A stretch of DNA of 29,662 nt, from IMG/VR virus record IMGVR_UViG_3300017482_000059. One strand, 5' to 3'. The position numbers and the translations under genes were made by a program. The notes beneath the pieces are model-generated. The model was not told where the DNA came from. It searched no databases and was given only the letters and a program-made list of their open reading frames with translations. Position 1 is the first letter of the stretch, and the number at the start of each line of letters is the position of its first letter. The DNA is from a virus. Positions 1,555-27,674 of this stretch are shown here, one piece after another.

Positions 1555-2924
1555 AGCTCCCCCTCTAAGACCTCCTTAGGGAAAACTTCTCCCTTAGGAA
1601 ACAGCCGACAGTACGGTTTTATAAATTCATAGAAAACTTCCTCCCTTTCTTTTTCAGAAAGGCCCGCTCTCTCTAAAATCTTATCAACTGTATTATACCA
1701 TAATAATGAAGCTTGTTTGAATATTGCTTCCATGTTACGCCATATTTCATAGACCTTTTCAGCGTCTTCCGTACTAATTTTCTTCTCGTCTACTAATTCC
1801 TTAACTGAAGGTACCATGTTATAAAACGAGTTTAAATCCGTTTTCGGGATATAGACTTCAACCCTTGTTAGAGGTAACCCGTCCCCTTTTTCTTCCTTTT
1901 CGGGCTTTCGGTGCACCTCCTCGGACTTAATTCGGCTTATCGCTTGAGAAACCGTGACCTCCTTGTCCAATATTTTCCGTAAGAGGTCGTCCCTTTCAAG
2001 GACTTTCCTCCCGTACTTATCGGTTATTAGTTCATTCAGGTCGCTTTCGGGAACCCGTTTATTCAGGTCTAGTAAATTCTTCTTCTTTAACAGCCTGTAT
2101 ATGTCGTAAGCCTTCTCTATGCCTATTTTCCCCTTATTTTTGTCCCCTATATAGTTAACCAACCACGGGGCTTCCTCCTTAACCTTTAAATATTTCTTTA
2201 TAGTTTCTTCATTAATCTCAATATCCGGAACCAGCCTTTTCAGCTCCTCTTTTATCTCTCTGGACTCATGTCTTACAGAAGTCGTTTTGGTGGTGGATCC
2301 GGGGGGCGGTCTGGCCGTCCAATTTGTTTCATTTGAAGTTTCCGAAATTGGAGCTGGGGAGCTCCAATTTGTCTCATTTGAAGTTGAATTATTACTATCA
2401 GAAGCGGTCGAACCGGTTCCACCATTATCGAACAGGTACTTCCGTGTATTACCTTCAGGGTTCGGCCTCTCGTTAGGGAACATATTGGCCAGCTTCGGTA
2501 CCTTTTTATCTCCCACTATAATATAATCACCCATATCTATTACCTGAGGAGATTTCGAGTTCGTCCTGATTTCCTTCTTCATTTCATGAACCTTATCTAT
2601 AAGCATAATAATTTCGTCTTTACTCAACTGTCTCCTCCTTATATTAAGGTTGACTACCATGTCGAGCTCTTCTTCCCTCCCATTAGTCTCATAAATGTCG
2701 ACAGGGATTCTAGACATCCCCAATTCCCTGGCGATCTTCAGCCTCGTATACCCGTCTATTACTTCTTTGTTTGTGTTAACTATAATAGGAAACAGGAAGC
2801 CGTCCTTAATCACCGTCTTTTTTAATTCCTCATATTGGTTATTCGTCGGCATAAGTGACTTGAATTCATTAACTTCCTTTACCTCGTTTACATCGAGTTC
2901 AGTCCTTTTAATGAATTTGGCCAC
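1551..2924 (-). CDS. parB: pNOB8-type ParB: ParB/Srx N-domain, S/T/N/P-rich linker, helical C-domain
   Basis: N-terminal PIIV...IDGYTRLKIARELG ParB motif; 457 aa; lies between aspA and parA with overlapping ends. Confidence 0.9.
   Translation of the reverse strand: MAKFIKRTELDVNEVKEVNEFKSLMPTNNQYEELKKTVIKDGFLFPIIVNTNKEVIDGYTRLKIARELGMSRIPVDIYETNGREEELDMVVNLNIRRRQLSKDEIIMLIDKVHEMKKEIRTNSKSPQVIDMGDYIIVGDKKVPKLANMFPNERPNPEGNTRKYLFDNGGTGSTASDSNNSTSNETNWSSPAPISETSNETNWTARPPPGSTTKTTSVRHESREIKEELKRLVPDIEINEETIKKYLKVKEEAPWLVNYIGDKNKGKIGIEKAYDIYRLLKKKNLLDLNKRVPESDLNELITDKYGRKVLERDDLLRKILDKEVTVSQAISRIKSEEVHRKPEKEEKGDGLPLTRVEVYIPKTDLNSFYNMVPSVKELVDEKKISTEDAEKVYEIWRNMEAIFKQASLLWYNTVDKILERAGLSEKEREEVFYEFIKPYCRLFPKGEVFPKEVLEGEL
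2345..2370. repeat. 26-bp palindrome, copy 1 (inside parB linker)
   Basis: AAATTGGAGCT-GGGG-AGCTCCAATTT; identical to 27537-27562. Confidence 0.95.
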
Positions 2925-3195
2925 CGGGTTTCACCGTTTTTTTCAATTCGTCGACTTCTTTAAAGAACTCGTCCAATAATAGTCTTCCTTTTTCGTTGAT
3001 AACATATTTTCCGTCTTTACTTTCAATGACACCTAACGCCGATAATTTCAAGACGTTAAACCTTACGGTGTGGTAGTGAGCACCTATACCTTTACTTATT
3101 TCCGAGACCGACTTCGGTTCCCCACTTTTATCTAAATACGCCAGGATCTTATAAGCCGGGTACACTTTCGGTAGGTTGTCCCTCACATTCATCAC
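2908..3195 (-). CDS. aspA: AspA-like winged-helix DNA-binding protein
   Basis: 95 aa wHTH (PKSVSEISKGIGAHYHTVRFNVLKLSALGVIESKDGKYVINEKG) directly upstream of parB-parA, the order known from Sulfolobus plasmid pNOB8. Confidence 0.85.
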   Translation of the reverse strand: MMNVRDNLPKVYPAYKILAYLDKSGEPKSVSEISKGIGAHYHTVRFNVLKLSALGVIESKDGKYVINEKGRLLLDEFFKEVDELKKTVKPGGQIH

Positions 3196-3234
3196 CTGCC
3201 AGTGTAAACTTTTAAATATTTAAACATTTTCCGT

Positions 3235-3537
3235 TTACCTACACCCCCCATATATAACGAAATCCCTTACCGCTTCGTCTTCCGGTCTTTTAGACCCTAA
3301 TCCCCTATATCTATTAACGCATTCCTCGAATTCATTTCGTCTTATTCTCAGGGTCTTACCCGGCCTCAATTCGTCATGGTTATTCGAATAAACCACTTTT
3401 AACTCCACTCCCTCTCCCTTTATTTTCCACGATATTACGTATTTTTCTACATCTTTTTCAGAGGCCAACCCCATTAAATAAGACAAAAACGAATCTGAAC
3501 GGGTTATAGACGTCCTTCCCGACTTCCGGGTCACCAT
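3235..3537 (-). CDS. Hypothetical protein, 100 aa
   Basis: Preceded by the conserved promoter (TATA 3568-3575) and TGACCAAAAATG leader. Confidence 0.8.
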   Translation of the reverse strand: MVTRKSGRTSITRSDSFLSYLMGLASEKDVEKYVISWKIKGEGVELKVVYSNNHDELRPGKTLRIRRNEFEECVNRYRGLGSKRPEDEAVRDFVIYGGCR

Positions 3538-3648
3538 TTTTGGTCATTATTTGATTGTAAAAAGAGGTATATAAATTTTCAGGCCTCAACTCCTCTCACG
3601 TTTCAAGCTGACCGAATAAACAATAAAAAAACGAAACTCTTTAAAGGT

Positions 3649-4386
3649 TTATTTTAACGGGTATAGGAACAGGTACATGTAGCTGGGATAGAGCTCTATT
3701 TCGAGTCCTCCGTGCTCAGGACTCTCCACTACGGCCCTAGTCACGGCGGAAAACGGGTAAATTAATTCAGCATGACCCCCGAAGCTGTACAACCCGAACT
3801 TCATGACCTCATATTCGAAACCGACCTTATGGCCGTTTATCGTAATACCCTCCACTATTTCATATCTCATTGGTTTAAACAACATAGGAGGTGTCCTTAT
3901 TATATATAACCCGTCCTGCTGACCTATAAGCTTATAATTAATTACTTTCCCTTTTTTCGCATTGATATATACCTTTATGTCATTACCTTTTACTCTTATC
4001 AGCCACCTGTCCTTGTCCATCATTTTCTCGACTTTTCTCTCTACCTCCTCAACCTCATCATAAACCAGGGACTCCGTGGTTCCGTAGTCATACCAAGCCC
4101 TCCGTCCCAACCCGGCCGGGTTCACCTTCATGTCCCGGATATAGAATATACCTTCCACCGGTTCCAACTTACCGTCCCTTATCTTGAAGCACCCCTCCTC
4201 CAACGAATTACCCTCCTTCTTAGTCTCACAGTACACGAAGTCCTTTACGAGTGAAATGCTTACTCCTGTGTACCCATCTACGAATACCTTCGGCAGTTTT
4301 ACATGCTTTTCTCCTTTCTCCTTCAACCACATACTGTTTAGTACCATCCTGCCCAAGACCTCTTCAAGACCGGGGTTCCCGACCAT
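3649..4386 (-). CDS. Hypothetical beta-rich protein, paralog of 17568-18320
   Basis: Shares PKVF(V/I)DG, EGCF, PVEGIFYI, KVNPAG, IKVYINA.KGK and SP(E/D)HG with the 250-aa ORF; conserved promoter (4417-4424). Confidence 0.85.
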   Translation of the reverse strand: MVGNPGLEEVLGRMVLNSMWLKEKGEKHVKLPKVFVDGYTGVSISLVKDFVYCETKKEGNSLEEGCFKIRDGKLEPVEGIFYIRDMKVNPAGLGRRAWYDYGTTESLVYDEVEEVERKVEKMMDKDRWLIRVKGNDIKVYINAKKGKVINYKLIGQQDGLYIIRTPPMLFKPMRYEIVEGITINGHKVGFEYEVMKFGLYSFGGHAELIYPFSAVTRAVVESPEHGGLEIELYPSYMYLFLYPLK

Positions 4387-4441
4387 TTTTGGTCATTATT
4401 ATAGTGGTAAAAGAGGTATAAAAAGTTTATCCTTAAAGCCC

Positions 4442-4789
4442 CTAGTCGGATGGTTCTGGCTGATAGTCGATAAAGAGGTATGGGCTTTCGAGCCTAATTT
4501 GTATGTCTTTCCCCAATAATATTTCTCTCTTTTCTCCAGCTTTAACTATTGTTATCTTCTTCGCTATAAATAGGTCTTCGATTTTTATTATTGCATCGTC
4601 TTGGATCAAGACCATTACTGGTACCGAATTGAGAGTAACGGATTTAACCATAACCCATATTAATATCCTTGATTCATCGCCATAATAACTTATCCCTAAA
4701 CCTCTTAAATTTTCTATTAATTCACTCATTTTTTGCTTTCCAGTTCTAGTACTATCTACGTTTTTTCGGGCCATTTTAGAACTAGACAT
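4442..4789 (-). CDS. Small paralog family A protein, 115 aa (start reassigned from 4819)
   Basis: TATA 4825-4832 and GGGGTACAAAAAATG leader put the start at 4789; LRGLGISYYGDESRILI motif. Confidence 0.75.
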   Translation of the reverse strand: MSSSKMARKNVDSTRTGKQKMSELIENLRGLGISYYGDESRILIWVMVKSVTLNSVPVMVLIQDDAIIKIEDLFIAKKITIVKAGEKREILLGKDIQIRLESPYLFIDYQPEPSD

Positions 4790-5027
4790 TTTTTGTACCC
4801 CAAGATATCGTTTAACCAAGCCAATATATAAATCTTTACCTAGTTTAAGGCTAAAAAATAACCCTACATTATTAATAATACCTTATGCTTATATGCCACT
4901 TATGTTTCCTCTCGTTCATGGGATCGTTATCCATAAATAGTCCTTATCTTCATTGATAACACGTAATACTTTTTTGAAATCACTGAAAAATATTTTTATA
5001 TTATAAGGGGTATAAAAAGTTTATGCC

Positions 5028-5348
5028 TCAGGCCGGTATTACCCATAAATGGTCTCTGTAATACCCCGCTTCCGACTTTTTAGGGAAATAGAGGTAAAGC
5101 CGTTTACCGGTATCCTCATTAATTATTCGTAAGGATTTATCGAAGTCCCTAAACGATATGTTTACGTTGTCCTGGTAGACCTCTATATACCCGAACGTAC
5201 CGAGGGCCATACTATGTAGCTGGCCCCTTATTACCAATTCGGGAAATTCACCGGGAAGATAAGCAGGGAGGTAGGTAGCTTTAACACCTACACTTTTCAG
5301 GACTTCTAATGCCTGGGACGGTTTCTTCCACTTCACGAACTCGGACAT
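5028..5348 (-). CDS. Small paralog family A protein, 106 aa
   Basis: LKSVGVKA...LVIRGQLHSMALGTFGYIEV resembles 29313 VKGKLRSMGFSDFGYIIEI; conserved promoter (5379-5386). Confidence 0.8.
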   Translation of the reverse strand: MSEFVKWKKPSQALEVLKSVGVKATYLPAYLPGEFPELVIRGQLHSMALGTFGYIEVYQDNVNISFRDFDKSLRIINEDTGKRLYLYFPKKSEAGYYRDHLWVIPA

Positions 5349-5388
5349 TTTTGGTCATTATTAATAATGAAAAAGGGGTATAAAAAGT

Positions 5389-5706
5389 TTACATCACCGT
5401 TTTCGTTAATTGGTTCCTTATTCCGTTAATTAGCGGGAAATATGAATTAAACCGTTTTGCGAATAACCAATAACCGATGATTTTTGCATGGTCTTTTTCG
5501 TCTATTTCATCTATTCTCCAACCTCCTCTCAACATATTATAGATTCTGACTATATTTTTGGTGACATATTCTTCGGGTGATAAAACTTTACTGTATTTAG
5601 CATCACCTGGATATTGAATAACGGCGTCACCAGGAGGTGTGCCATCCCACTGACCGTCCTTAATCTTATATATCTTAATCATTGACCCTTGTAAATTATG
5701 TTTCAT
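5389..5706 (-). CDS. Hypothetical protein, about 105 aa
   Basis: Open frame with protein-like composition; start may be the internal Met (MIKIYK). Confidence 0.6.
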   Translation of the reverse strand: MKHNLQGSMIKIYKIKDGQWDGTPPGDAVIQYPGDAKYSKVLSPEEYVTKNIVRIYNMLRGGWRIDEIDEKDHAKIIGYWLFAKRFNSYFPLINGIRNQLTKTVM

Positions 5707-5933
5707 CTTGTAGTTTATGCCGATAACACGGTGAGAACGGATTTGGAAATTAGGGTCTTTTCGGCGTCCGGAGGTAGTTTAATTCCATATGTTCTTGTGT
5801 AATAGGTTAATGCGTCTTCATTTTTCTTACCGAATTTTCTAGACCAATCGATAAGACAAGGAATACCGAAAATTATGGTGTGAAGGTATAAATTATGATT
5901 ATTGAGTCCTGAAGGAGAAAAAACGGGTTTAAC

Positions 5934-8465
5934 TCAAAGCTCGCAGGTCTTACAACCACCCGCATAGTTCTCGGCTACTTCGACGAACTCCTTCTCAACC
6001 CTCAAGCCAGAAGGTAAGAGCTTGGACTCCTTCTGTCCTTTCTGAACCTTTTCTTCTCCCTCTTTCGCTTTTTCTTCCTTTACTTCTTTCTCCTTCTTTA
6101 TGCCGAAGTATATCACTTGGTGGCCCTTACTCTTGTCCCTATACACGGTTACGCCTTTAATCCCTAATTTCCACGCCATCATGTAGACCTTTTCAACCGT
6201 TTCTACGGGTTCTTCAGTCCTGAGGTTTATGGTCTTGGAAGTCCCTGAATCGTTCCACTGTTGCCAGCTAGCTTGGTGTAGCAAGTGGAACTCGGGTGAG
6301 ACCTCGTGGGCCGTCCTGAAGAGCCTCCTTATTGTTTTCGGTATATACGGGTTCTCACCTACTGTCCCGGTTTCAGCTACCTTCTCTATTACTTCAGGAG
6401 AATTTAATTCATATACCTTCAAGAATTCCAAGAACAGCGGGTCTATCTCTATGAACTTCCCAACACTGACGTTCCTGATAAAAGCTAATGCGAATAACGG
6501 CTCTATAGATGAAGACGTGCCGGCGATTATCGAAATAGTACCGGTCGGTGCTATGGAGACTACAGTCGCGTTCCTCAGGCCGTACTTTAACCTCTCGTCC
6601 TTGACTTTAGACACATCTATATTTTCCGCTACTTCAGCAATTTCCCTTACGTAATCGGAGACTTTCCCATCAACACCGGCTACCCTTAAAAGTCCGTCTA
6701 ATGGTTTAGCTAACTCGAATATGTCCTTATAAAGTCTGGCGTCATAAGACGGGAAGCTACCTTTTTCTTTCGCTAACCCTATTGACGCCATCACGGCATG
6801 GTAATAGATGAACTTAGCTAATTGGTATGACAAATATACGGCATCAATACTATCATAAGGTATTCCTAACTTAATCAACATCCTGGCTAAACCCATTACA
6901 CCTAACCCTACTTTCCTCGTCCTCTTCGTGGCCTCTTCTATTTGTTTCAACGGGTACCTATTGGCGTCTATCACGTTGTCCAAGAGCCTAATAGCTACCC
7001 TTATTGTATTAGCCAAATCGTCCCAATCAATAGTTGGCTTACCGTTGACCTCCTTGACGAACTTCTCGAGGTTTATTGAGCCCAAATTACAAGATTCCCA
7101 AGGTAGTAAAGGTTCTTCTCCGCACGGGTTAGTCGAGTTTATCTTACCTAAATACCATGTAGGATGTCCTCTATTAATTGTGTCTATGAACAATAAGCCC
7201 GGGTCACCGCTGTCCCATGCCCCTTTTATTATTTCTCCAAAGAGTTTTCTTGCGTTGACCCACTTAACGGTTGCACCTTCTTTTTCAGCAATAATTAAAG
7301 CCTCATCAACCGTTATAATAACGCTTTCATCGAGGTAAACCGAACCTCCCCTCTCCTCTAACTCCCTCAGTATTTCTTCTTGTACCCATCCTTCTTCCAT
7401 ATACCCTCTGGCCTTAGTAATGATGTATTCGTGACTTTTTCCCGCTACCAACGTCTTCCTCGGGTTTATTAAAGGTACATTTTCACCTCTCTCGACCTTC
7501 TCCATAAAGTAGTCGTAAATACCTACGGAAATGTTGAAGTTCTGTAATTGGACATCTTTCAGTTCACCTGTCTTAGACCTTATAAATTCTTCAATATCAG
7601 GGTGCCAGATATGCATTACTCCCATATTAGCTCCCCTCCTTTTACCTCCTTGTTTCACTACGTCAGTACTCACATCGAATACTTTCATGAACGAGACCGG
7701 GCCGGAAGCTACTCCTGCGGTCGAAGCTACTATATCCCCTTTAGGTCTGAGTTCACTGAAGTCGAAGCCGGTACCTCCACCTTGTTGGTGAATTAGTGCC
7801 ATAGCCTTTAAAGCGTCGTAAATACCGTCTCCATCAGGAGCGGTCATCGAATCTTTAATTGGAACCACGAAGCAGGCTGAAAGTACCCCCATCCTAGTAC
7901 CCGCATTCATCAAGGTCGGCGAGTTAGGTAAAAATTTTAGGTCACTCATTATAGAATAAAACTCTTCCTCTATATTCCTTATATCTTCCTCCGACTTACC
8001 ATATTTCCGTTCAACTTCAGCTAAGAACTTCGCGACTCTCCTAAACATCATCTGCGGAGTTTCAATAAACCTTAATGTATTCGGATCCTTGAGGAGGTAC
8101 CTGGACTCCAGAACCTTGAGGGCGTTGTAGCTTAGTAAAAGATCCTTGGGGTCGAAGTCCTTCCACTTACCTTTACCATAAACGTGGTTGTAGATCCTAG
8201 CCAGCACGAACTTCTTAGCGAGCTCGAAGAACCTCGCGTCCTTGACGCCGTTCTCTACGAGGTTCCTCTCGATTATGTCAGCCACAGTCCTAGCCTCGAT
8301 CACCCCGTCCTTGGAGGACTTGGCTATGTCGTTGAATATGTTGTCCGCTATTTCGTCGGGGATGGGAAGCTTGGAGAGTATTTTCTCGGGCTTGAACTCT
8401 TCCCTTCTTCCGTCCCTCTTTATGACCGAGACCTTCCTCAGCTGTACGAGGATAGTGGACTCCAT
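5934..8465 (-). CDS. nrdJ: Class II (adenosylcobalamin-dependent) ribonucleotide reductase with N-terminal ATP cone
   Basis: ATP cone VIKRDG..E.F; [33 protein letters not shown] (thiyl Cys), [17 protein letters not shown]-terminal CKTC. Start likely the ATG at 8465 rather than 8552. Confidence 0.95.
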
Positions 8466-8607
8466 AGTTGATCGGATCCAAATTCCGGGTTTTCGACTAC
8501 AAAAAGGTTTCCGACATGAGTTATGGACGGATCCCCGTAACTCCGACGTCAAAAAACCTGCATGAAAAATATAGAAAAAACATCTCCGTTTTGAGAAACC
8601 TTAACCG

Positions 8608-9075
8608 TCAACTCGGACTTCGAATTGCCCTCATTATTTCTTCCAGTCTCCTCTCGATTTCGTCGACCTCTTTATCAGACACGGGCTCACTCTCCGGTTC
8701 TCCGAGAGCGATAATGTGTTCAAGGAAGACGTTGGTAGCGTCGTACAGTGCCCTTAATATATTATTTTTTAACTGTCCGTCGCCGACCAGGACGGCGAGT
8801 TTATATAACTTCTCAATATCCCTTAATAACCTAGTGGTGTGACCGTAATCGTCATAACCGGCCTCTTTCCTTAGGTCGTCCCAATCGATGTCTTTTAAAA
8901 CATTACCATCGAGTAACGCCATTTCCCATTCCATTAAGACACTCGTATATTTTCTGAGGTATTGGTACAAACTCCTCCTCGTCGTGTCGTTTTTCGAACT
9001 CTCCACATAAAAAACCAATTTATTTAGAACCCATAACAGGTCTCCTATCTTTTTAGGGTCAAGGATTTCGACCAT
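8608..9075 (-). CDS. Hypothetical alpha-helical protein, 155 aa
   Basis: Conserved promoter (9106-9113) and GACCGAAAATG leader. Confidence 0.8.
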   Translation of the reverse strand: MVEILDPKKIGDLLWVLNKLVFYVESSKNDTTRRSLYQYLRKYTSVLMEWEMALLDGNVLKDIDWDDLRKEAGYDDYGHTTRLLRDIEKLYKLAVLVGDGQLKNNILRALYDATNVFLEHIIALGEPESEPVSDKEVDEIERRLEEIMRAIRSPS

Positions 9076-9240
9076 TTTCGGTCGATATAATGATAATGAA
9101 AATAGTATTTAAAGTTTTATCCTCCTCACGGTTTCAAGTTCTTTATAAAAACCCATACCACCTTCTTTCATCCCAAGGTCTTTAATAAAAAACTTCCTTA
9201 TTTTACTCACTCTCATAACCCGAGAAATCATATTTAAATT

Positions 9241-9380
9241 TTACATTTAATCTCTTATTGAAAGTTATACGTATTAAGGTGCGACACCTTCGTTATTAAG
9301 ACGATATCTTGCTGATGTGCATGGAAAACCTTTTTAATGAGCAATACTGCTTGTGTGTCCCCGGTTCTCGTAATTAAAAA
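9241..9380. ncRNA. Putative structured non-coding RNA next to the Nop/IS110-like gene
   Basis: ORF-less; hairpins AAGGTG-cga-CACCTT, AAGA-cgata-TCTT and AGCA-atac-TGCT, each preceded by TTAA(G/TG); TTTAAA box at 9233-9238. Transcription is not shown. Confidence 0.35.
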
Positions 9381-9382
9381 AA

Positions 9383-19428: not shown

Positions 19429-19443
19429 TACCACCTCACTTCT

Positions 19444-19734: not shown

Positions 19735-19823
19735 ATATGTCCGTAAACGCGGTCTCTATTTAAGAGTTTCGCTAAATACCCGGAAAGCCGGCATGAAAGT
19801 TTAAAAACGGCTCCATAACATAA

Positions 19824-20247
19824 ATGGTAAACGTAAATATCGAATTATGACTATTACCGGCTCCTGACTCATGAGGGAGATAAAGGGAGTACCGAAACCT
19901 ATCACGTCGTTGAAATAGAGGAATTAACAGTTAATTATATAAATACAATAATAATAACACATATATTTTTGTTATTGCCGGTCTTACTGAACCCGATAAA
20001 AGGACTTATTATATTTACCGTGTCTTCAATATTCATGTTTGCACTCATTAAAAACAGTACCTTACTCTTCTTCAATCCATTGATTTTCGTGACCGGCAAC
20101 CACGTCTACAGGATAAAAGTAAGTGAACATAACAAAACGATTTACGTAATATATAAGGAGAAGATTCAAGAAGGTGATTACATCAAAATTAAACATTTTT
20201 ATGAGAGTATTTACCTTGATGAAAAGATTATAAGGAAAAAAGAATAA
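19824..20247 (+). pseudogene. Membrane protein gene, probably frameshifted near the 5' end
   Basis: The frame of the tracked ORF 19969-20247 is open back to 19837 without a start codon; ATG 19824 is in another frame and stops after 8 codons. Confidence 0.4.
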
Positions 20248-20275
20248 ACCGTGACAATGACTTAATGATGTTTGA

Positions 20276-20419
20276 TCAAGAACTTCTATATAAGAATTTC
20301 GGTACCGTAACTCCCGTTTGTCATTGATATTTCCCTTTGTACAGGTTCTCCACGGGAATTAGAGCTCTGGCGAGAACCAAGTGGAGGAACCTAACTCCTA
20401 TTTTCAATTTCAAAGGGAA
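20276..20419 (-). pseudogene. dcd: dcd 3'-end remnant
   Basis: Translates as [41 protein letters not shown] versus intact [42 protein letters not shown]; in-frame stop, no 5' part. Confidence 0.9.
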
Positions 20420-20460
20420 TTAATAAAATTACATGTTGTCTGAATTAACTTTCTACTTTA

Positions 20461-20769
20461 TCAACTCCATTTACTATAAAACAATCCTTTTATCTTTACA
20501 TGTTCTTCAAGCTTGGCCTTTACCTTATCACTTTTGAAGCCAATACATGAAATCGACATAATTTTTTTCTTACCTACATCATAATCTATTTCACATACCA
20601 AGTTGTAATTAATAGACCTCAATTTCAATTTATAAATTATTCCAGGAATAATTTCTTCCTTAAAGAATATCCTGACGCCATCTACTTCCATCACGAGTGT
20701 CCCGTCTTCCAGCTTTTTAAAAGGGAAAAAGTCTATCATTCCATTATCACTACAAGACCTTCTTTGCAT
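20461..20769 (-). CDS. Hypothetical protein (third of an overlapping three-gene operon)
   Basis: Overlaps the upstream ORF; start may be the internal MIDFF. Confidence 0.65.
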   Translation of the reverse strand: MQRRSCSDNGMIDFFPFKKLEDGTLVMEVDGVRIFFKEEIIPGIIYKLKLRSINYNLVCEIDYDVGKKKIMSISCIGFKSDKVKAKLEEHVKIKGLFYSKWS

Positions 20770-21074
20770 GAGAGCTTCTTGTTTTTATATAATGGAATAA
20801 CTTTTTCTTCAATTGCCTTCGCTATACATGGAAGGTATTTGATATATTCTTTAGGTACCTCGATGACTTCATAAAAGTAGAGCTGTCCTTCTAAGAAAAA
20901 GGGGACTCTATACTCTCCCAAACTCGTCTTGTCGTCTAAATAATCAACAAAAAGTACCCTCTCCTGATTCCTTATCAGGAGAATTACATTCTTCAGAAAC
21001 GCAAGGAACCCTTTTATTTCCGATTTGAAAAAGGTTTTCCTTTCTAGCTTGACTTTAATTTCCACACAATTCAC
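20736..21074 (-). CDS. Hypothetical protein, 112 aa
   Basis: 4-nt overlap with the upstream gene. Confidence 0.7.
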   Translation of the reverse strand: MNCVEIKVKLERKTFFKSEIKGFLAFLKNVILLIRNQERVLFVDYLDDKTSLGEYRVPFFLEGQLYFYEVIEVPKEYIKYLPCIAKAIEEKVIPLYKNKKLSCKEGLVVIME

Positions 21075-21475
21075 CCAAATAGCAACTTTTGAAGCTTAGC
21101 GTAATAATAGAGCAAGAACATCTGAGCAACATTCAATGCCATGATTGAAACCATGATCAAAACCAAGAATATCGGAGGAGAGAAGGCTATCATGTACGCT
21201 AGATATATTGTTAACGCTAGTACGGACTTCGCTATTCCGTAATACTCGGCAAGCTTGAGACTCATAGCTATCATAGTTAGTATAATAGCATTAAATATAC
21301 CTGATATTAGTGGTACACTAACTAATACCGACCTCTGTATAACATCATTTACAGGTAACCCTATATATGATAGAATCGAGTAAAGTGTTACCGATAGTAT
21401 TATATTTATTGAATAAAATGTAATTGCGGATATTAAAATTGTCTTGCCCATTTTTCTTAGGTCTACCTCATTCAT
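21071..21475 (-). CDS. Four-TM membrane protein
   Basis: Four hydrophobic segments; GGAGGTGG RBS and TTTTAAATA upstream. Confidence 0.75.
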   Translation of the reverse strand: MNEVDLRKMGKTILISAITFYSINIILSVTLYSILSYIGLPVNDVIQRSVLVSVPLISGIFNAIILTMIAMSLKLAEYYGIAKSVLALTIYLAYMIAFSPPIFLVLIMVSIMALNVAQMFLLYYYAKLQKLLFG

Positions 21476-21529
21476 TGTCGTTTTACATCCACCTCCGTAT
21501 TTCTTATAGGCTCCGAATATTTAAAAAAT

Positions 21530-22081
21530 TTAAACAAGGTTATTACCCTCGACTAAGAGACTCGAGGATTTGAACTTCGGTACCGTAACTCCTGTTTGTC
21601 CTTGATATTTCCCTTTATACGGGTTCTCCACAGGCGTTAGAGTCCTAGCGAAAATCAAGTGGAGAAACCTGGTTCCCCTCCTTAACTTAATAGGGAACTC
21701 CGAGCCTATCACCTCAATGGTCAGCTGACCCTCGAAGCCCGCGTCCACTATAGTAGGAGGAATAAAGAGACCCAACCTCGCGAAAGAAGACCGTAAATTC
21801 ACGAAAGCTATTACGTCGTTAGGCAATTTTATGTATTCTTCGGTGACCGTTAAAATATGTTCATTCGGATATATCACGAACTCCTCTCCCCTCTCCTTTT
21901 GGAAATAGTTAGGGTCTGGGTTTTCGGGGTCAAATGGTTTTTCAGTTTTCTTAAACCTGGCTATTTCGTTGCCGATCCTTAAGTCTACCCCGTTCTCCCT
22001 TATCGTGTCTTCACTTAGGGGTTTAATCACTATCAACTCCTTTTCCAAATAATATTTCAAGTCTCTGTCTCCCAGGATCAT
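21530..22081 (-). CDS. dcd: dCTP deaminase
   Basis: [48 protein letters not shown]. Confidence 0.95.
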
Positions 22082-22160
22082 GAACCTCCCGATATCTGTG
22101 GATTGCCGGGATTTAAATTTAAACCGGAAGACCTTTCAAAACATGAAAACCGTCTTAATG

Positions 22161-23006
22161 TTAGATATTATTGAACCCGATGTTAGTTTTTCTCCCATTG
22201 ATCTCCTTTTCGATGTTTACCGATATCAGTTCGTCCAAATTAACGGTATACAACACTACTCTCACCTGTTGTGGGAGACTGACCAAATACAACATGGCGT
22301 TCTCTCCTTGCAACAACCTGTTACCGTCGCTGACTTCAATGCTGGAAATAGAACCGTTCTTTATTATCATCTTCCCATTAAGTTTATCACCTCTTATTAC
22401 GACTACCCCGTATTCGATGTCCTTCATTGTCTCGGTAATCTTCGGAAGGACTTGACTGAATAGGCCCTGTTCCTCCATGAGCTTTAACGGAGTTACTTCC
22501 GTGATTCCGGCTTCATTTTTCGTATTCAAATAGTGTTTCACATATGGTACTATATGGTCTTCTACTAAATGCTGTGCTAACATGAACGGGGACTTCCCTA
22601 ATATCTTTTCTAACATCGACATCTTATAATCGCATGACGTGTTGATCCTCATCAGGGTTTGGTTAGGCCTTATCGCTGAAGCTTCCAACCTGGCTTCCCA
22701 TATAAATTTCCTTTCATTAGTCCACCCCCTATACACGATGCTCCCGGACTCGTATATAGGCCCTTCAAGTTCTCCTAAGAAATAACTGATTCCCGTCTCC
22801 GGGGTGCCGAATATATATATTGATAGGAATTTATTGGAAAACCCGCTCAATTTCCCGAAATCAACGTATTTTCCTTCCTTCGGGTCATATACTCTAAGCA
22901 GTCCTATATGTCCGAACACACCCGCCGTCAGAAAAGGGTCAGTCATAAGCCTTAATGCGTCCTCTTTCTGTAAATTAATAATCAGTTCTTTTGAATATGA
23001 GGGCAT
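22161..23006 (-). CDS. Sulfolobales-type protein with probable START/SRPBCC-like N-domain and a second C-terminal domain
   Basis: L..MTDPF....VFGHI start and a beta-rich pattern typical of helix-grip folds; recognised by eye only. Confidence 0.55.
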   Translation of the reverse strand: MPSYSKELIINLQKEDALRLMTDPFLTAGVFGHIGLLRVYDPKEGKYVDFGKLSGFSNKFLSIYIFGTPETGISYFLGELEGPIYESGSIVYRGWTNERKFIWEARLEASAIRPNQTLMRINTSCDYKMSMLEKILGKSPFMLAQHLVEDHIVPYVKHYLNTKNEAGITEVTPLKLMEEQGLFSQVLPKITETMKDIEYGVVVIRGDKLNGKMIIKNGSISSIEVSDGNRLLQGENAMLYLVSLPQQVRVVLYTVNLDELISVNIEKEINGRKTNIGFNNI

Positions 23007-23145
23007 TACGTTCCCCTATTATAAAAGTCCCCGGCCCCGGTTTATAAACTTTATGAGAGCGGTTTTCCCCATTATACGGTTTTATATTAAATTTTCGAAG
23101 ATAGAAAAATTTTTATTCTTGGAATTATAATTTGTAACATGAGAA

Positions 23146-23409
23146 ATGGGGACTGAAGCGGGTTTCCCTGATAAGGATATAAGAGGACTACTCCAATTCA
23201 TGAGGGTCATAATTTTACACGCTGATAATAAAACTATTGAAGAGATTTCCGAAGCCACCGGCATTAGACCCGAATACGTTGAGGGCATATTAAGAATAAT
23301 TACGGGGATGGGAATAGCTGTCGAATCGGGTAACAGGTTCTATATTGAGGACGATATGAGGGACTCTTATAATTCGTCCATAATGAGGTTATTGAACGCA
23401 ACCGAATAA
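23146..23409 (+). CDS. Winged helix-turn-helix protein
   Basis: KTIEEISEATGIRPEYVEGILRIITGMGIAVESGNRFYI. Confidence 0.75.
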   Translation: MGTEAGFPDKDIRGLLQFMRVIILHADNKTIEEISEATGIRPEYVEGILRIITGMGIAVESGNRFYIEDDMRDSYNSSIMRLLNATE

Positions 23410-23450
23410 AAAAATACCTTTTCTTTTTCCTGTCCCGGAAAACTAAACCT

Positions 23451-23852
23451 TTAAGGAGTCGCCGGTATTACGTCTTTATTATCGTTTTTGTTTTCCGGGA
23501 CACCATCACTTATTTCGGGTACTTCAGCAATAATCCGCACCTTCCTTATCCCCTTTTCTAGCAATTCTTTTACTATCTTCTTTTTCGGGATTACTATTGC
23601 GTATAAGGGGACTCTTTCCCCGTTCTTCCTTTTATAGTCCGAATGCTTGTAGACCCTTGATTCGTTCACGAAATACCTTTTATCCTTTGTAACAATCTCT
23701 ACATTCTTAAGTGTTTTCACTTTTCCTAATATATCATTATACTCTATCGAGAATACCACGAAATACAAAGAATATTCCTTCTTCTCGCCGGTCTTCTTGT
23801 CCTTTACCTTTACCTTTTTCCTCCTAATCGTCATCTCGTCCTCTATTATCAT
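23451..23852 (-). CDS. Basic protein with two AbrB/SpoVT-like beta repeats (putative DNA-binding)
   Basis: GEKKEYSLYFVVF and GERVPLYAIVIPKK repeats; conserved promoter 23885-23892. Confidence 0.55.
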   Translation of the reverse strand: MIIEDEMTIRRKKVKVKDKKTGEKKEYSLYFVVFSIEYNDILGKVKTLKNVEIVTKDKRYFVNESRVYKHSDYKRKNGERVPLYAIVIPKKKIVKELLEKGIRKVRIIAEVPEISDGVPENKNDNKDVIPATP

Positions 23853-23929
23853 TTTTATCCACCATTTTTATGTACCATTTTCGGTATTTAAATTTAACTG
23901 GAAAATAAGGCATAAAACTCGGGTACCCT

Positions 23930-24259
23930 TTATCTGGCTGTGCCCGGAAACATTATTATTAAATAACCGTCCAGGTACCTCACGATTACCTCCAGATCCC
24001 TCCCCAGGTAAATCGAATCCGGTTCCACATCGTCAATATCGTCATCCTCATCGTTATCGGCTATCTCAATAAAATTATCACCGTTATACCTCGAATAATA
24101 TATGGACTTTTTCCCATTCGTTATGACTATTTCCTGTACGCCGAAAAATTCTACGTTTTTGACTTCACCTTTTACTTTTATCGTGTTAGTTTCGGGAGAG
24201 TACTCGACCTCGAACCCTTCCTCCTCCAGGACTTCCGCTAACCTTGAGGGGTTCACCAT
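23930..24259 (-). CDS. Small paralog family A protein, acidic, 109 aa
   Basis: LEEEGFEVEYSPETNTIKVKGEV; promoter 24291-24298 and TGACCGAAAATG leader. Confidence 0.8.
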   Translation of the reverse strand: MVNPSRLAEVLEEEGFEVEYSPETNTIKVKGEVKNVEFFGVQEIVITNGKKSIYYSRYNGDNFIEIADNDEDDDIDDVEPDSIYLGRDLEVIVRYLDGYLIIMFPGTAR

Positions 24260-24337
24260 TTTCGGTCAGTGCAAATTGGAAGAAAAGGGGTATAAAAAGT
24301 TTTCGGCACCATATTTACGAGTTCTAAGGGTATAAAA

Positions 24338-24431
24338 TTTAAATATCCGCCCGTTATAATATAATATTGAGAATGGGGAGACTACCGAGAATTTTTCTCA
24401 TTTTCGTAATAAAATTTCGGTTATGAGGAAA
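24338..24431 (+). ncRNA. Orphan promoter + 29-nt core, unit U1
   Basis: TATA 24338-24345; core AATGGGGAGACTACCGAGAATTTTTCTCA at 24372-24400; downstream ATGAGGAAA can pair with TTTTCTCAT. Confidence 0.5.
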
Positions 24432-24547
24432 CCTCTTATTCCTAATAATAAGGACATAAACGGGAAATTTTGACATTATATCCACGAGCTATAGGGCATA
24501 AAAATTTAAATACCCGTTTTTACTACATTATAACCGGGGACAAAAAA

Positions 24548-24898
24548 ATGGCCCAGGTACTCGTGAACCCCAAAACTTATATAAAAAGGGTAAACGTTTT
24601 CCACAACTCTTTAGGTGTTATAGTTAGTGCTGATATATTAAGTAAATCAAGACCGGGTCTGTCGCACTATACCAGAATCATGATAGACCCGAAAACCAGT
24701 GAAATAGTGAAATTGTCCTGTGATTGTGAAGGGTTTACTTTCAGAAAGAAGTGCTGGCACTTATATCTATTAAAAGGGCTTATTCAGACAGACCTAAAAG
24801 AAGAAGTCTTTAAAGAAGAAATAAATTGGTTTAAGGAAAAAATGCTGAGCTGTGAAATAAAATTAGCCCGAATTCGTGATATTGTATACAATGAATGA
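24548..24898 (+). CDS. SWIM zinc-finger protein, 116 aa
   Basis: SCDCEGFTFRKKCWHL (CxC...CxH). Start reassigned from 24470 because the extension reads through the promoter (TATA 24505-24512). Confidence 0.85.
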   Translation: MAQVLVNPKTYIKRVNVFHNSLGVIVSADILSKSRPGLSHYTRIMIDPKTSEIVKLSCDCEGFTFRKKCWHLYLLKGLIQTDLKEEVFKEEINWFKEKMLSCEIKLARIRDIVYNE

Positions 24899-24953
24899 AA
24901 ACGTAAATTGATACCCTTTTTGGCCATTATTTTATACCCGAATGGGGGATAAA

Positions 24954-25062
24954 TTTATATACCCTTTTTACTAATATCATAATAGGGAGACTATCGACCA
25001 TTTTTCTCATTCTTGAGATTAAAATCCAAAGACGAAATTTTTTGCTGTGCATATACCCTATT
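24954..25062 (+). ncRNA. Orphan promoter + 29-nt core, unit U2
   Basis: TATA 24954-24961; core AATAGGGAGACTATCGACCATTTTTCTCA at 24981-25009; the 5' AATAGGG can pair with CCCTATT at 25056-25062. Confidence 0.5.
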
Positions 25063-25207
25063 ATAATAAGGAGATAATGGTTGTAATTTCTATTAGTTTA
25101 AGTGAAATAAAATGGGTATAGTGACTGAAATTATGGCATTATCTATCGTAGAGTTGAGGCATAAAAATTTAAATACCCCTTTCACACTATTATATCTCAG
25201 GACAAAA

Positions 25208-25528
25208 ATGACCGACGTCGCCACTGAAATGATATCCCGAATCAGGTCAGCGTTAGATGAATTTGGAGTACCCTATTCAATTAAAAACGGCTCTATTTAT
25301 ATAAAAGCCGACCTAATCGTAGATTTTCAGGAGTCCAGCTCGTTCATTTCGTTTAGATATATTTCGAGAAACGGTGTGGAAATTGTATTTTCTGTAAACG
25401 TACACGGTGACACGAAATTTATTGAATTAAAGGCACCTGACGGGAAAAGGAAAATATTGCACTTAGGAAGAAACGTTTACTACAATTTACAAGACAAGTA
25501 TATTAAATGTAAATATTTCGAGTATTAG
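25208..25528 (+). CDS. Small paralog family A protein, 106 aa
   Basis: LDEFGVPYSIKNGSIYIKADL; TATA 25168-25175; start reassigned from 25112. Confidence 0.8.
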   Translation: MTDVATEMISRIRSALDEFGVPYSIKNGSIYIKADLIVDFQESSSFISFRYISRNGVEIVFSVNVHGDTKFIELKAPDGKRKILHLGRNVYYNLQDKYIKCKYFEY

Positions 25529-25567
25529 AAATTAGTACTCCTTTTGGCCTTATCGTGGGGTATAAAA

Positions 25568-25685
25568 TTTAAATACCCGTCCGACATATAACTGAATAGG
25601 GGGGCTATCGAATATTTTTCTCATTTTCATGATATTTTTACAACCATGAAAAACCCCTATACCATATATTATAATAATATGGTAT
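25568..25685 (+). ncRNA. Orphan promoter + 29-nt core, unit U3, with nested stems
   Basis: TATA 25568-25575; core at 25595-25623; TTTTCATG/CATGAAAA (25624-31 / 25645-52), ATAGGGG/CCCCTAT, then a perfect 9-bp IR at 25659-25685. Confidence 0.55.
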
Positions 25686-25810
25686 ATGGTCACAATTTAT
25701 TTCGTTGCCGGTAACTAAATTGGGGCTATTTTTATCCTCTATCTTATCGTCTTTATGGGGTATAAGATTTAAATATTTGAACCGACTACTATTATATCGG
25801 GGGTCAGGAA

Positions 25811-26203
25811 ATGGAAGTAGACATTTACGCAGTGGGGTCTCCTTATTTGTGCAAGGACAATGTCCTAATAATTGAAGAACACGGTTACGGGAACATCATA
25901 TTGGAAATCCGAGGCAGTGGAATAAATAAGCCCGGAAAGGAAATTTTAGATAGATATAGATATGAAATACCTTCTGAGGAGTGCAGGCCTTTATTAAGAA
26001 AAGACCTAAAGGAATTGAACATAAGGCTCAAGAAGATAGATTATATATTACTAGATCAGAGAGACGAATATACAATATATGAGGTCACCTATAGAGATTT
26101 AAAGGCTTACATTGTAGAAAATTGGAACGGATATAGTGCCGAATTGAAATTCGAAGTCTTTAAGGAGAAGGACGACGCGGTGTCTTGGGTCTTTTCAAAA
26201 TAA
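25811..26203 (+). CDS. Hypothetical protein, 130 aa
   Basis: Conserved promoter 25768-25775. Confidence 0.8.
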   Translation: MEVDIYAVGSPYLCKDNVLIIEEHGYGNIILEIRGSGINKPGKEILDRYRYEIPSEECRPLLRKDLKELNIRLKKIDYILLDQRDEYTIYEVTYRDLKAYIVENWNGYSAELKFEVFKEKDDAVSWVFSK

Positions 26204-26359
26204 GGTTTTTTACATATCCCTTTATCTCAATAGCGGTATACCTTATATTATTATAATAGGGTTACCGAACCCCTATAATTTTTGGCACCATTGTAAGCCT
26301 GAAAGGGGCATAAAAATTTAAATATTTGAACCGACTACTATTATATCGGGGTACAAAAA

Positions 26360-26695
26360 ATGGAAACCCCGCAAGAGGTCTCCGAATTAATGAGACATCT
26401 GAAAATGGCCGGGTTCAAAGCAAAGCAAAATAATGGAATAATATCAATAAAAGGAAAAATGGATATAGTGTACAAAAAAGATAATGATTTAGATATAGAG
26501 ATAGTATATAGAGATTTGAAGTTAGCATATATGGAAAGAGGAGATAGGACGAAGATAATGCTATTAAAAATCGATAAAATTATAAAAGATACTAAAGAAC
26601 AAAAAATAGTTGATTATTTCATATTGAAAATAATAGAATTCGATAGGAAATTCGAGGTATGGTTCAGTGAAGACAGTTTCAAGATAAGGTACTGA
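26360..26695 (+). CDS. Small paralog family A protein, 111 aa
   Basis: LKMAGFKAKQNNGIISIKGKM; promoter 26317-26324. Confidence 0.8.
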   Translation: METPQEVSELMRHLKMAGFKAKQNNGIISIKGKMDIVYKKDNDLDIEIVYRDLKLAYMERGDRTKIMLLKIDKIIKDTKEQKIVDYFILKIIEFDRKFEVWFSEDSFKIRY

Positions 26696-26777
26696 TTTTT
26701 TCCCTCTATCTTAAGGACATATGGGGCATAAAGATTTAAATACTTGAAGTGTTTACTATTATATCGGGGGCACAAAA

Positions 26778-27248
26778 ATGACCGGTAAAAGGTTGTTAGT
26801 CCTCGACCTCGACGGTACCCTCATGGACTCCCAGAGGAGGTGGGAAGAGTGTCAGAGGTTATACCCCAATAACAAAAAGGAGTTCTGGAATTGCTTCCAG
26901 AGCGAGAGGTTTATGGACTTAGACAGCCCTAAGGAAAATGTGGTCAGTTATGCCAAATCACTAATAAATGAAAATACGGTAACAGTAATCGTTAGCGGGA
27001 GGTCTGAGAAGCAATTGAACAAAACCCAAGAACAATTAAACAAAATAGGGATTATCCCAAATGAGATATACCTAAGGAAGAACGGAGATTTCAGGAAAGA
27101 TTTTCAATTCAAGGGCGAGATAATTAACCAATTAATTCAGAAATATATCCCGGCTGAAGTAATCGTAATCGACGACTCAGATGATGTAATAAACCACATA
27201 TCTCAGAATTACCCGAATATAAAAGTAATCGACTCGAAGAAGTTATAA
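26778..27248 (+). CDS. HAD phosphatase resembling the polynucleotide kinase 3'-phosphatase domain
   Basis: DLDGT motif I, VSGR motif II, R..GDFRKD..FK, IDD motif IV. Confidence 0.85.
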   Translation: MTGKRLLVLDLDGTLMDSQRRWEECQRLYPNNKKEFWNCFQSERFMDLDSPKENVVSYAKSLINENTVTVIVSGRSEKQLNKTQEQLNKIGIIPNEIYLRKNGDFRKDFQFKGEIINQLIQKYIPAEVIVIDDSDDVINHISQNYPNIKVIDSKKL

Positions 27249-27303
27249 TTTTTCGAAAACTTGAACCGTTTCTATTTAAATACTGTGACCGAAAATATTA
27301 ATA

Positions 27304-27416
27304 ATTTTTCTCAGAACAGTAATAATAATCCTATTGGATTTCTTGTTCAGAAATGAGAAAAATATTCCATACCCTCCCCATTTTCAATATATTATAACGC
27401 GAAACTGATATTTAAA
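27304..27416 (-). ncRNA. Orphan promoter + 29-nt core, unit U4, with long hairpin
   Basis: TATA 27409-27416; core at 27354-27382; ATTTTTCTCA (27304-13) / TGAGAAAAAT (27354-63) IR plus GAACA/TGTTC. Confidence 0.55.
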
Positions 27417-27536
27417 TCTTTATGCCCCATAAGTCATAATTATAAGGGATAAACTTCCCTTTAACTAAATGAGTGAATACCTTATATTATAATAATAGGA
27501 ATACAGAGGTCGAATTTTTCTCACTCATATTTGTCA

Positions 27537-27562
27537 AAATTGGAGCTGGGGAGCTCCAATTT
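27537..27562. repeat. 26-bp palindrome, copy 2 (intergenic)
   Basis: Identical to 2345-2370 and in the same orientation; lies just downstream of degenerate core U5 (27494-27523). Confidence 0.95.
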
Positions 27563-27674
27563 CTCTTACGAATTTGAAACAAATAACCCTAAATTTCGAC
27601 ATTATTGTAAGCCGGAAAGGTGCATAAAAATTTAAATACTTGAAATGACTATACTACAACCCGGGGGTCACAAA

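Follow-up and report, generated by a model that had tools for sequence, protein, structure and literature searches.

The 26-bp palindrome that occurs twice in the window (the whole contig analyzed here, 29,662 nt) belongs to a class of perfect palindromes that lie at the same place within pNOB8-type archaeal parB genes and that have apparently gone unremarked so far. Our best reading, which we hold tentatively, is that the palindrome is a cis-acting, cruciform-capable, centromere-like site of the AspA/ParB module that has been duplicated in the window. The palindrome has an 11-4-11 architecture with an asymmetric GGGG centre. The original observation of an identical, directly oriented pair was confirmed: both copies are exact matches on the + strand with a start-to-start spacing of 25,192 nt, and no third copy was found in the window at up to three mismatches (100 dinucleotide shuffles gave 0 matches). 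Folding of either DNA strand yields the expected hairpin, with −10.3 to −10.8 kcal/mol at 37 °C and a z-score of −4.0 to −6.2, and 0 of 200 shuffles were equally good. No terminal overlap of the 29,662-nt contig was found; if the element is circular, the distance between the copies the other way round would be about 4.5 kb. The two copies and the partition cassette are located as follows.

2345–2370: palindrome copy 1, 11-4-11, reading GGGG on the + strand and CCCC on the parB coding strand, in the first parB linker
27537–27562: palindrome copy 2, intergenic, 26/26 identical to copy 1 and in the same orientation
2320–2341 and 2363–2384 (span 2320–2384): two 22-nt direct repeats (21/22 identical) flanking copy 1 and overlapping it
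2908–3195, − strand: aspA-like winged-helix gene (wHTH Pfam matches; 31% identity to pNOB8 AspA)
1551–2924, − strand: parB, 457 aa (Pfam ParB_N; PDB 4rs7 ParB-C, E 1.3e-41; 5k5d, E 1.6e-24)
598–1554, − strand: parA, Walker-type ATPase (Pfam AAA_31/CbiA; 87% identity to pNOB8 ParA)
171–617, − strand: fourth cassette gene, PD-(D/E)XK-like nuclease (34 homologs; D61, E78, and K80 invariant)

The aspA-like gene overlaps the start of parB. The ParB protein consists of a ParB/Srx N-domain, a variable linker that contains copy 1, a conserved middle domain, a second linker, and a CenpA-like C-domain. Copy 1 encodes the peptide NWSSPAPI within the variable linker, and the 22-nt repeats around it encode a duplicated peptide, TSNETNW. 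The Atlas look-alikes of the fourth cassette gene are PD-(D/E)XK clusters (0.95), and the nuclease gene also lies 3' of parA in pBEU9E1 and two further elements (G003 and G004), as well as in pNOB8, where it follows an IS.

Among 15 distinct pNOB8-type parB genes (20,406 nt), 10 contain perfect palindromes whose arms measure 10 nt or more, 14 in total, compared with 0.115 to 0.135 expected from 200 shuffles. All 14 fall at residues 133–196, that is, in the linker between the ParB N-domain and the middle domain, and copy 1 shares its position and architecture with the palindromes of the nine other genes; the palindromic site is thus linked to the par operon. Imperfect dyads of 26 to 28 nt, with the same ends and at the same place, occur in four more genes, bringing the total to 14 of 15, those of G293 and pNOB8 parB2 being individually not above shuffles. 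Three broken parB fragments also carry dyads. The dyad is kept at the same place among ParB proteins down to about 30% identity. A ParA match was found downstream of 7 of the 15 parB genes, so that the dyad does not consistently co-occur with a ParA motor: no ParA was found within 2.5 kb downstream of parB for L002 or pNOB8 parB2, and there was no match within the 489 to 621 nt downstream at G316a, G295, G302, and G280, whose palindromes are perfect, or at G293 and G297, whose palindromes are imperfect. In G004, parA and the nuclease gene are present and parB has no palindrome.

The palindromes in the linker are 26 to 27 bp long with the ends AAAT/AAGT…ATTT/ACTT. In the dyad alignment, columns 1, 2, 4, and 26 are invariant and columns 23 and 25 nearly so, whereas the inner arms vary among lineages with symmetry kept. 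The arms covary: 96% of cells are paired, with a score of 0.82 versus 0.19 and 0 of 500 shuffles as high, although this count was taken on sequences selected for being palindromes. Both sides have changed in 8 of 11 arm pairs, and G-U pairs occupy only 1 of 176 cells. That the inner arms vary and yet remain symmetric, with next to no G-U pairs, argues that the constraint acts on DNA. The reading frame of the dyad and the encoded peptide vary between clades, and identical arms enclose GGGG in pNOB8 but CCCC in pBEU9E1 and G302; together with the covariation, these changes indicate that what is constrained is double-stranded DNA or both strands.

These observations also bear on the idea that the palindrome works at the RNA level, with a hairpin in the parB mRNA tuning translation, processing, or termination and a transcript of copy 2 acting as antisense. 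The hairpin is indeed stable, several dyads terminate in TTT(T), and copy 2 comes after a promoter-proximal repeat unit. However, neither wobble-tolerant covariation nor a strand-specific loop was found: G-U pairs are nearly absent, and the loop reads GGGG or CCCC depending on the mRNA, which favours DNA rather than RNA. Moreover, the 0- to 2-nt centres of several dyads cannot form loops. The palindrome has no Rfam match, and a bacterial-type scan gave no terminator-like site at 27200–27700. The complementarity on which the proposed antisense target was based is trivial, since transcripts of any two palindrome copies are automatically complementary to one another. We consider an RNA-level role very unlikely.

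A selfish or purely mutational origin is doubtful. An ancestral dyad could have sat in a disordered, mutation-tolerant linker with no function for the host element, its perfection being kept by hairpin-templated (quasi-palindrome) correction, with occasional copying elsewhere. Copy 1 does lie in a low-complexity linker of variable length, its frame and peptide are not conserved among clades, some genes contain decayed dyads, G004 lacks one despite an intact cassette, and broken parB fragments still carry theirs. Mobile palindromes are known from Rickettsia (palindromic elements, in frame in genes) and from mitochondria (GC clusters). Like the parB dyads, these have a GC-richer core and AT-rich ends, are tolerated in frame in a variable segment of the protein, and vary in copy number among relatives; unlike them, they are dispersed over many genes and spacers, whereas the parB dyads occupy one linker of one gene family. 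The constancy of place down to about 30% ParB identity and the conserved ends and length are also at odds with a selfish origin, as is the intergenic DNA of all relatives examined, which is free of such palindromes although a mobile element would be expected to colonize it. Finally, S. islandicus genomes generally avoid palindromic words and counter-select palindromes (PMC3718332), a point that also favours a cis-acting site.

The search outside parB covered the whole of pNOB8, pBEU9E1, and pYN01 and 13.7 to 80 kb around parB in seven further elements, and none of these 10 elements contained an AAAT/AAGT-type palindrome there. The window's copy 2 is therefore unusual, and no partner site exists in the relatives for the site-specific excision that had been suggested, in which an att/dif-type tyrosine-recombinase site would excise the DNA between the copies and split parB. 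The layout does speak for such a site, in that an asymmetric centre separates inverted arms, the two copies run in the same direction, and their identity breaks off abruptly on the right. However, tyrosine recombinases use overlap regions of 6 to 8 nt, and the centre here is only 4 nt. The 20 ORFs searched against Pfam (each of at least 95 aa, including all ORFs of at least 230 aa) and the 8 ORFs searched against PHROGs, on a contig that may be incomplete, showed no integrase or recombinase domain, and the window has no tRNA gene. pNOB8, pBEU9E1, and pYN01 do have integrases, yet their parB palindromes are confined to a single locus. Like the antisense target, an att-type excision site is poorly supported, and we regard it as barely credible.

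The restriction of the dyads to parB across the 10 elements links them to the partition module, as a cis site is linked to its reader. We tentatively propose that the AspA/ParB module may dock or nucleate at the palindrome, recognizing it via its ends and symmetry, and that, like parS, the palindrome would be retained within the gene of its own reader. The sequences establish that the element exists, where it lies, that it is symmetric, conserved, and constrained as DNA, and that it was duplicated in the window; binding by a cassette protein and a role in partition we infer. The window's two copies are identical, and pNOB8 parB holds two palindromes (35805–35830 and 35878–35908 of NC_006493.1) with 10-nt arms in common, whereas the paired palindromes of L001, L002, G302, and G297 differ in their inner arms and have AAAT/ATTT alone in common. 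A reader of a whole half-site would probably fail to read both members of such a differing pair, and recognition of structure would fit better than a classical operator, since only ends and symmetry are common. Against a cis site stands the finding that no relative examined has a second copy outside parB.

Of the three options originally put forward for the palindrome, a centromere-like site has fared best, in that parB contains a conserved palindrome class, but this class is distinct from the known AspA site. In pNOB8, AspA binds another palindrome, 23 bp long, and it is this one that has been demonstrated to be the centromere; the archaeal pNOB8 ParB was reported to bind DNA only non-specifically (PMC5120986). 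Both sites are perfect dyads of the same cassette, and the AspA site has two copies in pNOB8 and pBEU9E1 with the asymmetric centre inverted. However, the AspA site is unrelated in sequence, has 9-nt arms and a 5-nt centre, and is found at promoters, with 4 bp between it and the start codon. Only pNOB8, pBEU9E1, and pYN01 have this 9-5-9 dyad; the region upstream of aspA contains nothing comparable in the window or in L001, L002, G316a, and others. Bacterial systems offer a partial parallel. The first parS of Bacillus is located within spo0J, and the centromeres of phage N15 and the KorB operators of RK2 are dispersed palindromic sites. Bacterial parS is a 16-bp site of conserved sequence that is read by the ParB HTH. 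In these systems, as here, a palindrome is linked to or lies inside a ParB-family gene, sometimes with more than one copy per replicon; unlike bacterial parS, the parB dyad is a 26- to 27-bp candidate site in which conservation is limited to the ends, the inner arms being hypervariable even inside a single gene.

The AspA–ParB–ParA machine of pNOB8 is the structural model of archaeal DNA segregation, and the one cis site described for it is the AspA palindrome that precedes the aspA gene. Should the parB dyads form a further class of cis site, current ideas of how the archaeal segrosome nucleates would need revision. Since pNOB8 parB itself carries two dyads, and purified proteins and crystal structures are at hand, this is directly testable with existing reagents.

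The main rival to a cis site, possible though on balance unlikely, is that the palindrome is a hotspot of palindrome-driven recombination or gene conversion. The dyad would extrude as a hairpin or cruciform and then be cut, perhaps by the PD-(D/E)XK protein of the cassette or by host Hjc, or copied across, which again we judge possible rather than likely. Such events would flip centres, replace cores, cause small duplications and deletions, and produce an ectopic copy, and the direct copies could mediate the loss of 25.2 kb or, in a circular element, of 4.5 kb. Several observations fit: symmetry is perfect regardless of sequence, and the centre is flipped between identical arms. In a 117-bp tandem repeat of L002, the flanks are 34/36 and 58/60 identical and the cores only 15/26, and G316a has its flank in common with L002 and its core (22/26) with L001a. 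Close homologs carry one to three units per linker, as inferred from peptides. In the 99%-identical variants P0133 and P0134, one 22-nt repeat is replaced (NET to DDK), so that they differ in a three-residue block that abuts the palindrome. In these four ways core and flank are decoupled, which suggests recombination of some kind at the palindromes. Why a palindromic core in the L002 repeat should have been replaced as a block, with its flanks left identical, has no ready explanation under either reading.

If such a hotspot exists, the dyad would be a long-armed relative of the 16-bp motif dispersed in Sulfolobus conjugative plasmids, which Stedman in 2000 and Greve in 2004 reportedly called a recombination motif. 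Direct repeat motifs have been linked to plasmid rearrangement (PMC4872121). The 16-bp palindrome has as its core the octamer CTGGGGAG, which is also central to the window's palindrome and to those in pNOB8 parB; these share with it a GGGG-centred dyad and AAA…TTT ends as well. pNOB8 has 23 copies of the 16-bp palindrome at up to three mismatches (0.57 expected), 12 of them exact, pBEU9E1 and pYN01 have 10 to 11 perfect GGGG-centred copies, and the motif also occurs in an integrated element of Metallosphaera. L002 has a variant of it in its second parB linker, a place at which homologs show shuffling of the C-domain. Unlike the 26-bp parB dyad, however, the 16-bp motif is dispersed in 10 to 23 copies per plasmid over genes and spacers, and a general hotspot would not be confined to a single linker of one gene across 10 other elements. 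The identities of the N- and middle domains co-vary across 98 homologs, so that the first linker is no visible breakpoint of domain shuffling. The window has no 16-mer (0 matches at up to three mismatches) and only 3 occurrences of CTGGGGAG (0.56 expected), 2 of them at palindrome centres, and the octamer is missing from many parB palindromes, indeed from most of the linker dyads. If the dyads are recombination-prone, they would provide a natural, defined substrate for palindrome and cruciform processing at 80 °C and might explain the instability of these plasmids.

Cis-site and recombination properties could also be combined, in that the dyads would be exchangeable palindromic "barcodes," cruciform-forming recognition cassettes in the coding sequence of the partition adaptor whose 18-nt cores are swapped en bloc; we find this quite doubtful. 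A structure-specific cut-and-copy process would carry out the swaps, both among elements and among the sites of a single element. In this way, related plasmids and viruses that share a host could vary their cis sites while leaving the flanking gene unchanged, and might, for instance, escape partition incompatibility; the window's copy 2 would be a fresh product.

For the cis-site reading, copy 2 would be a second site, created when a piece of about 54 to 78 nt was copied into an intergenic region, here between the ORFs at 26778–27248 and 27645–27989. Copy 2 lies 12 to 13 nt past a degenerate copy of a repeated promoter-proximal unit. The features around copy 2 are the following.

27509–27586: insertion of about 78 nt that carries copy 2, from alignment with the paralogous intergenic region 26204–26365
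27645–27989, + strand: ORF of the SWIM zinc-finger family downstream of copy 2, a distant homolog of the SWIM gene of pNOB8 and pBEU9E1

The left 28 nt of the insertion match the left flank of copy 1 at 17/28 positions when anchored (P about 2–3e-4), although an unanchored test of this likeness was not significant. With 17/28 in the left flank versus 26/26 in the palindrome, 26 unchanged positions are not expected by drift. The link through the SWIM gene is weak because the window holds several paralogs; in both pNOB8 and pBEU9E1, the SWIM gene follows the second AspA site.

The window is the entire contig (29,662 nt) of a Sulfolobales element, and its left end holds a partition cassette of the pNOB8 type:

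2908–3195, minus strand, aspA-like wHTH gene
1551–2924, minus strand, parB
598–1554, minus strand, parA
171–617, minus strand, predicted PD-(D/E)XK-like gene (148 aa), the fourth cassette gene, after parA

A scan of the window placed the 26-mer at 2345–2370 (copy 1, inside parB) and 27537–27562 (copy 2), both on the + strand, and found no third site at ≤3 mismatches; shuffled sequences gave 0 matches. The scan thus confirmed, at this threshold, the original prediction of two copies in the same orientation with no further copy in the window. The 26-mer is an 11-4-11 palindrome, and its GGGG centre is what makes the two copies direct repeats. When folded as DNA, each strand gives the expected hairpin, with -10.3 to -10.8 kcal/mol (z -4.0 to -6.2). 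An att-type site, one of the functions raised by the original prediction, fits less well and is highly improbable, as no integrase domain was found in the scanned window ORFs; nor did the window yield a tRNA gene or an Rfam match. The 26-mer was not found in the viral contigs, nor its 20-nt core in the genome contigs. The single match to this core in the metagenome contigs (L006) lies in a GC-rich, unrelated 708-aa ORF with unrelated flanks and was taken as chance, and a near half-site at 25717 of the window looks like chance as well.

Copy 1 codes for NWSSPAPI, in the variable linker that joins the N-domain of ParB to its conserved middle domain. For comparison, parB genes were taken from two IMG/VR contigs, from the plasmids pNOB8, pBEU9E1, and pYN01, and from the 15 of 325 Sulfolobales genomes that had a match; a tblastn search of plasmids for parB gave only 4–5 records, and a profile scan of the viral contigs revealed no further parB. 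Removal of two identical duplicates (G296, the same as pYN01, and contig 2 of G297, the same as contig 1) left 15 distinct genes plus fragments, all from Sulfolobales. Fourteen perfect palindromes with arms of at least 10 nt occur in 10 of these 15 genes, compared with 0.115 (mononucleotide shuffles) or 0.135 (codon shuffles) expected over the whole set, and all 14 are located at residues 133–196, that is, in one and the same linker. Conservation in relatives, which the original prediction had left to be checked, holds for the parB palindrome as a class of dyads. The pNOB8 gene has two dyads, at 35805–35830 and 35878–35908, with a common 10-nt arm. Four further genes carry imperfect dyads, with 10–12 of 13–14 pairs and with equal ends at the equal place; when three of the four (all except that of G297) were compared singly with shuffles, G316b was above the shuffles and G293 and pNOB8 parB2 were not. 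The G004 parB is the one gene of the 15 without a dyad, and three broken parB fragments also have dyads. Outside parB, three whole plasmids and seven further elements, the latter over 13.7–80 kb around parB, had no such dyads. A literature search, made without the primary pNOB8 papers, found no description of palindromes inside archaeal parB, so an earlier description is possible. In one locus (L020; G315 C1: 978902–982258, at 1901–1925), the parB frame is broken approximately 30 nt past the dyad, which puts the N and middle domains in separate ORFs; this is only one case of a lesion beside the palindrome.

The dyads are fixed in length and at their ends, and variable inside. Among 16 aligned 26-mers (alignment A5, without two further dyads that are 27 nt long and without G302a, which is the same as that of pBEU9E1), columns 1, 2, 4, and 26 are invariant, columns 23 and 25 nearly so, and everything between varies. 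In the 11-pair helix, 96% of cells are paired, eight pairs show changes on both sides, and covariation is 0.82 compared with 0.19 in shuffles (none of the 500 reached this value), a count that describes rows picked as palindromes, the proof of nonrandomness being the shuffle-based number of palindromes. A G-U pair is seen in only 1 of 176 cells, the dyads use three reading frames, and the coding strand of pNOB8 has GGGG at the centre and that of pBEU9E1, G302, and the window CCCC, with arms that are otherwise identical or analogous. Taken together, these features indicate that it is the DNA that is constrained, rather than the mRNA or the protein. The scarcity of G-U pairs and the flipped centre also speak against an RNA element, a second function raised by the original prediction, which fits less well and which we regard as very unlikely.

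The restriction of the dyad to a single linker of parB, its constant length and ends, and its deep conservation argue for a cis element of the AspA/ParB module, where it would serve as a docking or nucleation site. In bacteria, parS can be located inside parB, and with this precedent we tentatively favor docking or nucleation as the most economical reading. Several observations count against such a cis site: paired dyads have unlike inner arms, no ParA was found beside several of the parB genes with dyads, and the full cassette of G004 lacks a dyad. Dyads without adjacent ParA and the full cassette without a dyad also led us to reject a tie between perfect dyads and intact parA. In the published picture, AspA is the specific and ParB the non-specific binder (PMC5120986), which was likewise counted against a cis site linked to ParB.

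AspA has a known site of its own, a distinct dyad with a 9-5-9 architecture, which was found upstream of aspA only in pNOB8, pBEU9E1, and pYN01. The copies in two of these plasmids are as follows:

pNOB8 (L003), 33607–33629 and 35101–35123, AspA 23-bp palindrome, two copies
pBEU9E1 (L007), 30064–30086 and 31600–31622, AspA 23-bp palindrome, two copies

In both, the second copy has an inverted centre and is placed some 1.5 kb upstream; a SWIM zinc-finger gene begins 4 bp from it. Nothing comparable was found upstream of aspA in the window, in the IMG/VR contigs L001 and L002, or in G316a. Upstream of aspA-parB in two genomes (G316, 1316921–1316950; G293, 112125–112154), other palindromes are found, a perfect one of 30 bp with 12-nt arms and one of 21 bp, which may act in that lineage as the operator of AspA type. 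A GC-rich stretch in L002 (12689–12716, equal to G002 45593–45620), about 1.2 kb downstream of parB at the expected place of parA, contains a 28-bp palindrome with CCTGGGGA in its arms; no tRNA was found there.

Cores and flanks of the dyads appear to be decoupled. In L002 (IMG/VR 3300027932_000001, 10300–10650), parB contains a 117-bp tandem duplication whose flanks are identical at 34/36 and 58/60 positions, and the two dyads in the repeat, each perfect, have 15 of 26 positions in common; a possible explanation of this repeat is an assembly artefact that merged strain variants. G316a has its flank in common with L002 and its core in common with one dyad of L001 (L001a), variants 99% identical to the window ParB differ in a three-residue block abutting the palindrome-encoded peptide, and close ParB homologs have one to three palindrome-like units per linker, as judged from peptides only. 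By these observations, the cores behave like units with a history of their own. Core swaps, together with perfect symmetry whatever the sequence and the flips of the centre, favor the main rival explanation, namely that hairpins or a cruciform form in vivo and that the DNA is processed there; we consider this rather unlikely as a rival; quite possibly it belongs to one story with the cis-site reading. A tolerated selfish palindrome fits less well and seems improbable. The ParB family is a domain mosaic. In a set of 98 homologs, the N and middle domains co-vary, and the CenpA-like C-domain is shuffled against this pair: within the family (P0002–P0098), the closest relatives in N and middle domains (73–82% identity) have an unrelated C-terminus, distant homologs (about 30%) retain a roughly 70% identical CenpA-like C-domain, and some homologs have a PLD-nuclease C-terminus.

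One pNOB8 parB dyad has the same centre, CTGGGGAG, as the window palindrome. This octamer also forms the core of a 16-bp palindrome dispersed in plasmids, which is known from the older plasmid literature and recurs in the sequences examined. In pNOB8, the 16-bp palindrome is present 23 times at ≤3 mismatches (0.57 expected), with 12 exact copies. Perfect GGGG-centred palindromes, mostly the 16-mer or close variants, number 10 in pBEU9E1 and 11 in pYN01; an integrated Metallosphaera element has four such palindromes, and a variant of the 16-bp palindrome lies in the second parB linker of L002. The window contains 0 copies of the 16-bp palindrome and only three of the octamer CTGGGGAG.

Copy 2 is intergenic. 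The region around it is a paralog of 26204–26365, relative to which a scripted alignment shows an insertion of ∼78 nt at 27509–27586 with the palindrome in its middle. With the palindrome as anchor, 17 of the 28 nt left of copy 2 agree with the parB flank (P ∼2–3e-4 against random 28-mers), and this similarity ends at the border of the insertion. Unanchored local alignment of the flanks gave no significant match (p 0.14 left, 0.27 right). On the right, the flanks of the two copies align only once gaps are allowed (5/20 ungapped, not significant). Based on these alignments, we read copy 2 as putatively derived from a ∼54–78-nt stretch of the parB linker, or from a source common to both. The left flanks have diverged by approximately 40% and the 26-mer is unchanged, which points to selection on both copies or to ongoing conversion between them. 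The ORF directly downstream of copy 2 (27645–27989) is a distant homolog of the SWIM gene near the second AspA site, a weak lead that copy 2 might mark the position of that site; what weakens it is the presence of several paralogs in the window, together with a differing geometry. Five copies of a degenerate 12-nt motif, AATTT-N-T-Y-TCA-Y, are present in the window compared with 0.23 expected:

2321–2332 and 2366–2377, both flanks of copy 1
27513–27524, left flank of copy 2
24390–24401 and 29128–29139, two promoter-proximal repeat units

The promoter-proximal units read GGGGAG-N9-AATTTTTCTCA (six matches, 0.15 expected) and resemble the right half of the palindrome with its flank. The likeness of motif and units to the palindrome and its flank suggests that they share an origin or a reader.

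The window was absent from the plasmid, phage, viral, genome, and metagenome collections scanned, and the plasmid collection had no near match. The phage collection gave a single match, 460 nt (window 5435–5894) at 87.8% to Sulfolobus monocaudavirus SMV2, the only named virus with a near-identical match, and nothing matching 24000–29662. Other window genes encode a ribonucleotide reductase, a dCTP-deaminase-like protein, and proteins of viral PHROG families; the ORF at 9383–10438 matches phrog_33543 at 2.6e-165. This element could be a virus or a virus–plasmid hybrid. The fourth cassette gene is predicted to encode a PD-(D/E)XK-like protein solely from an Atlas look-alike, as PDB profile and sequence searches with the 148-aa protein gave no match. 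The gene is conserved after parA and is present in pBEU9E1, G003, G004, pYN01, and pNOB8; the protein has 34 homologs, in which D61, E78, and K80 are invariant.
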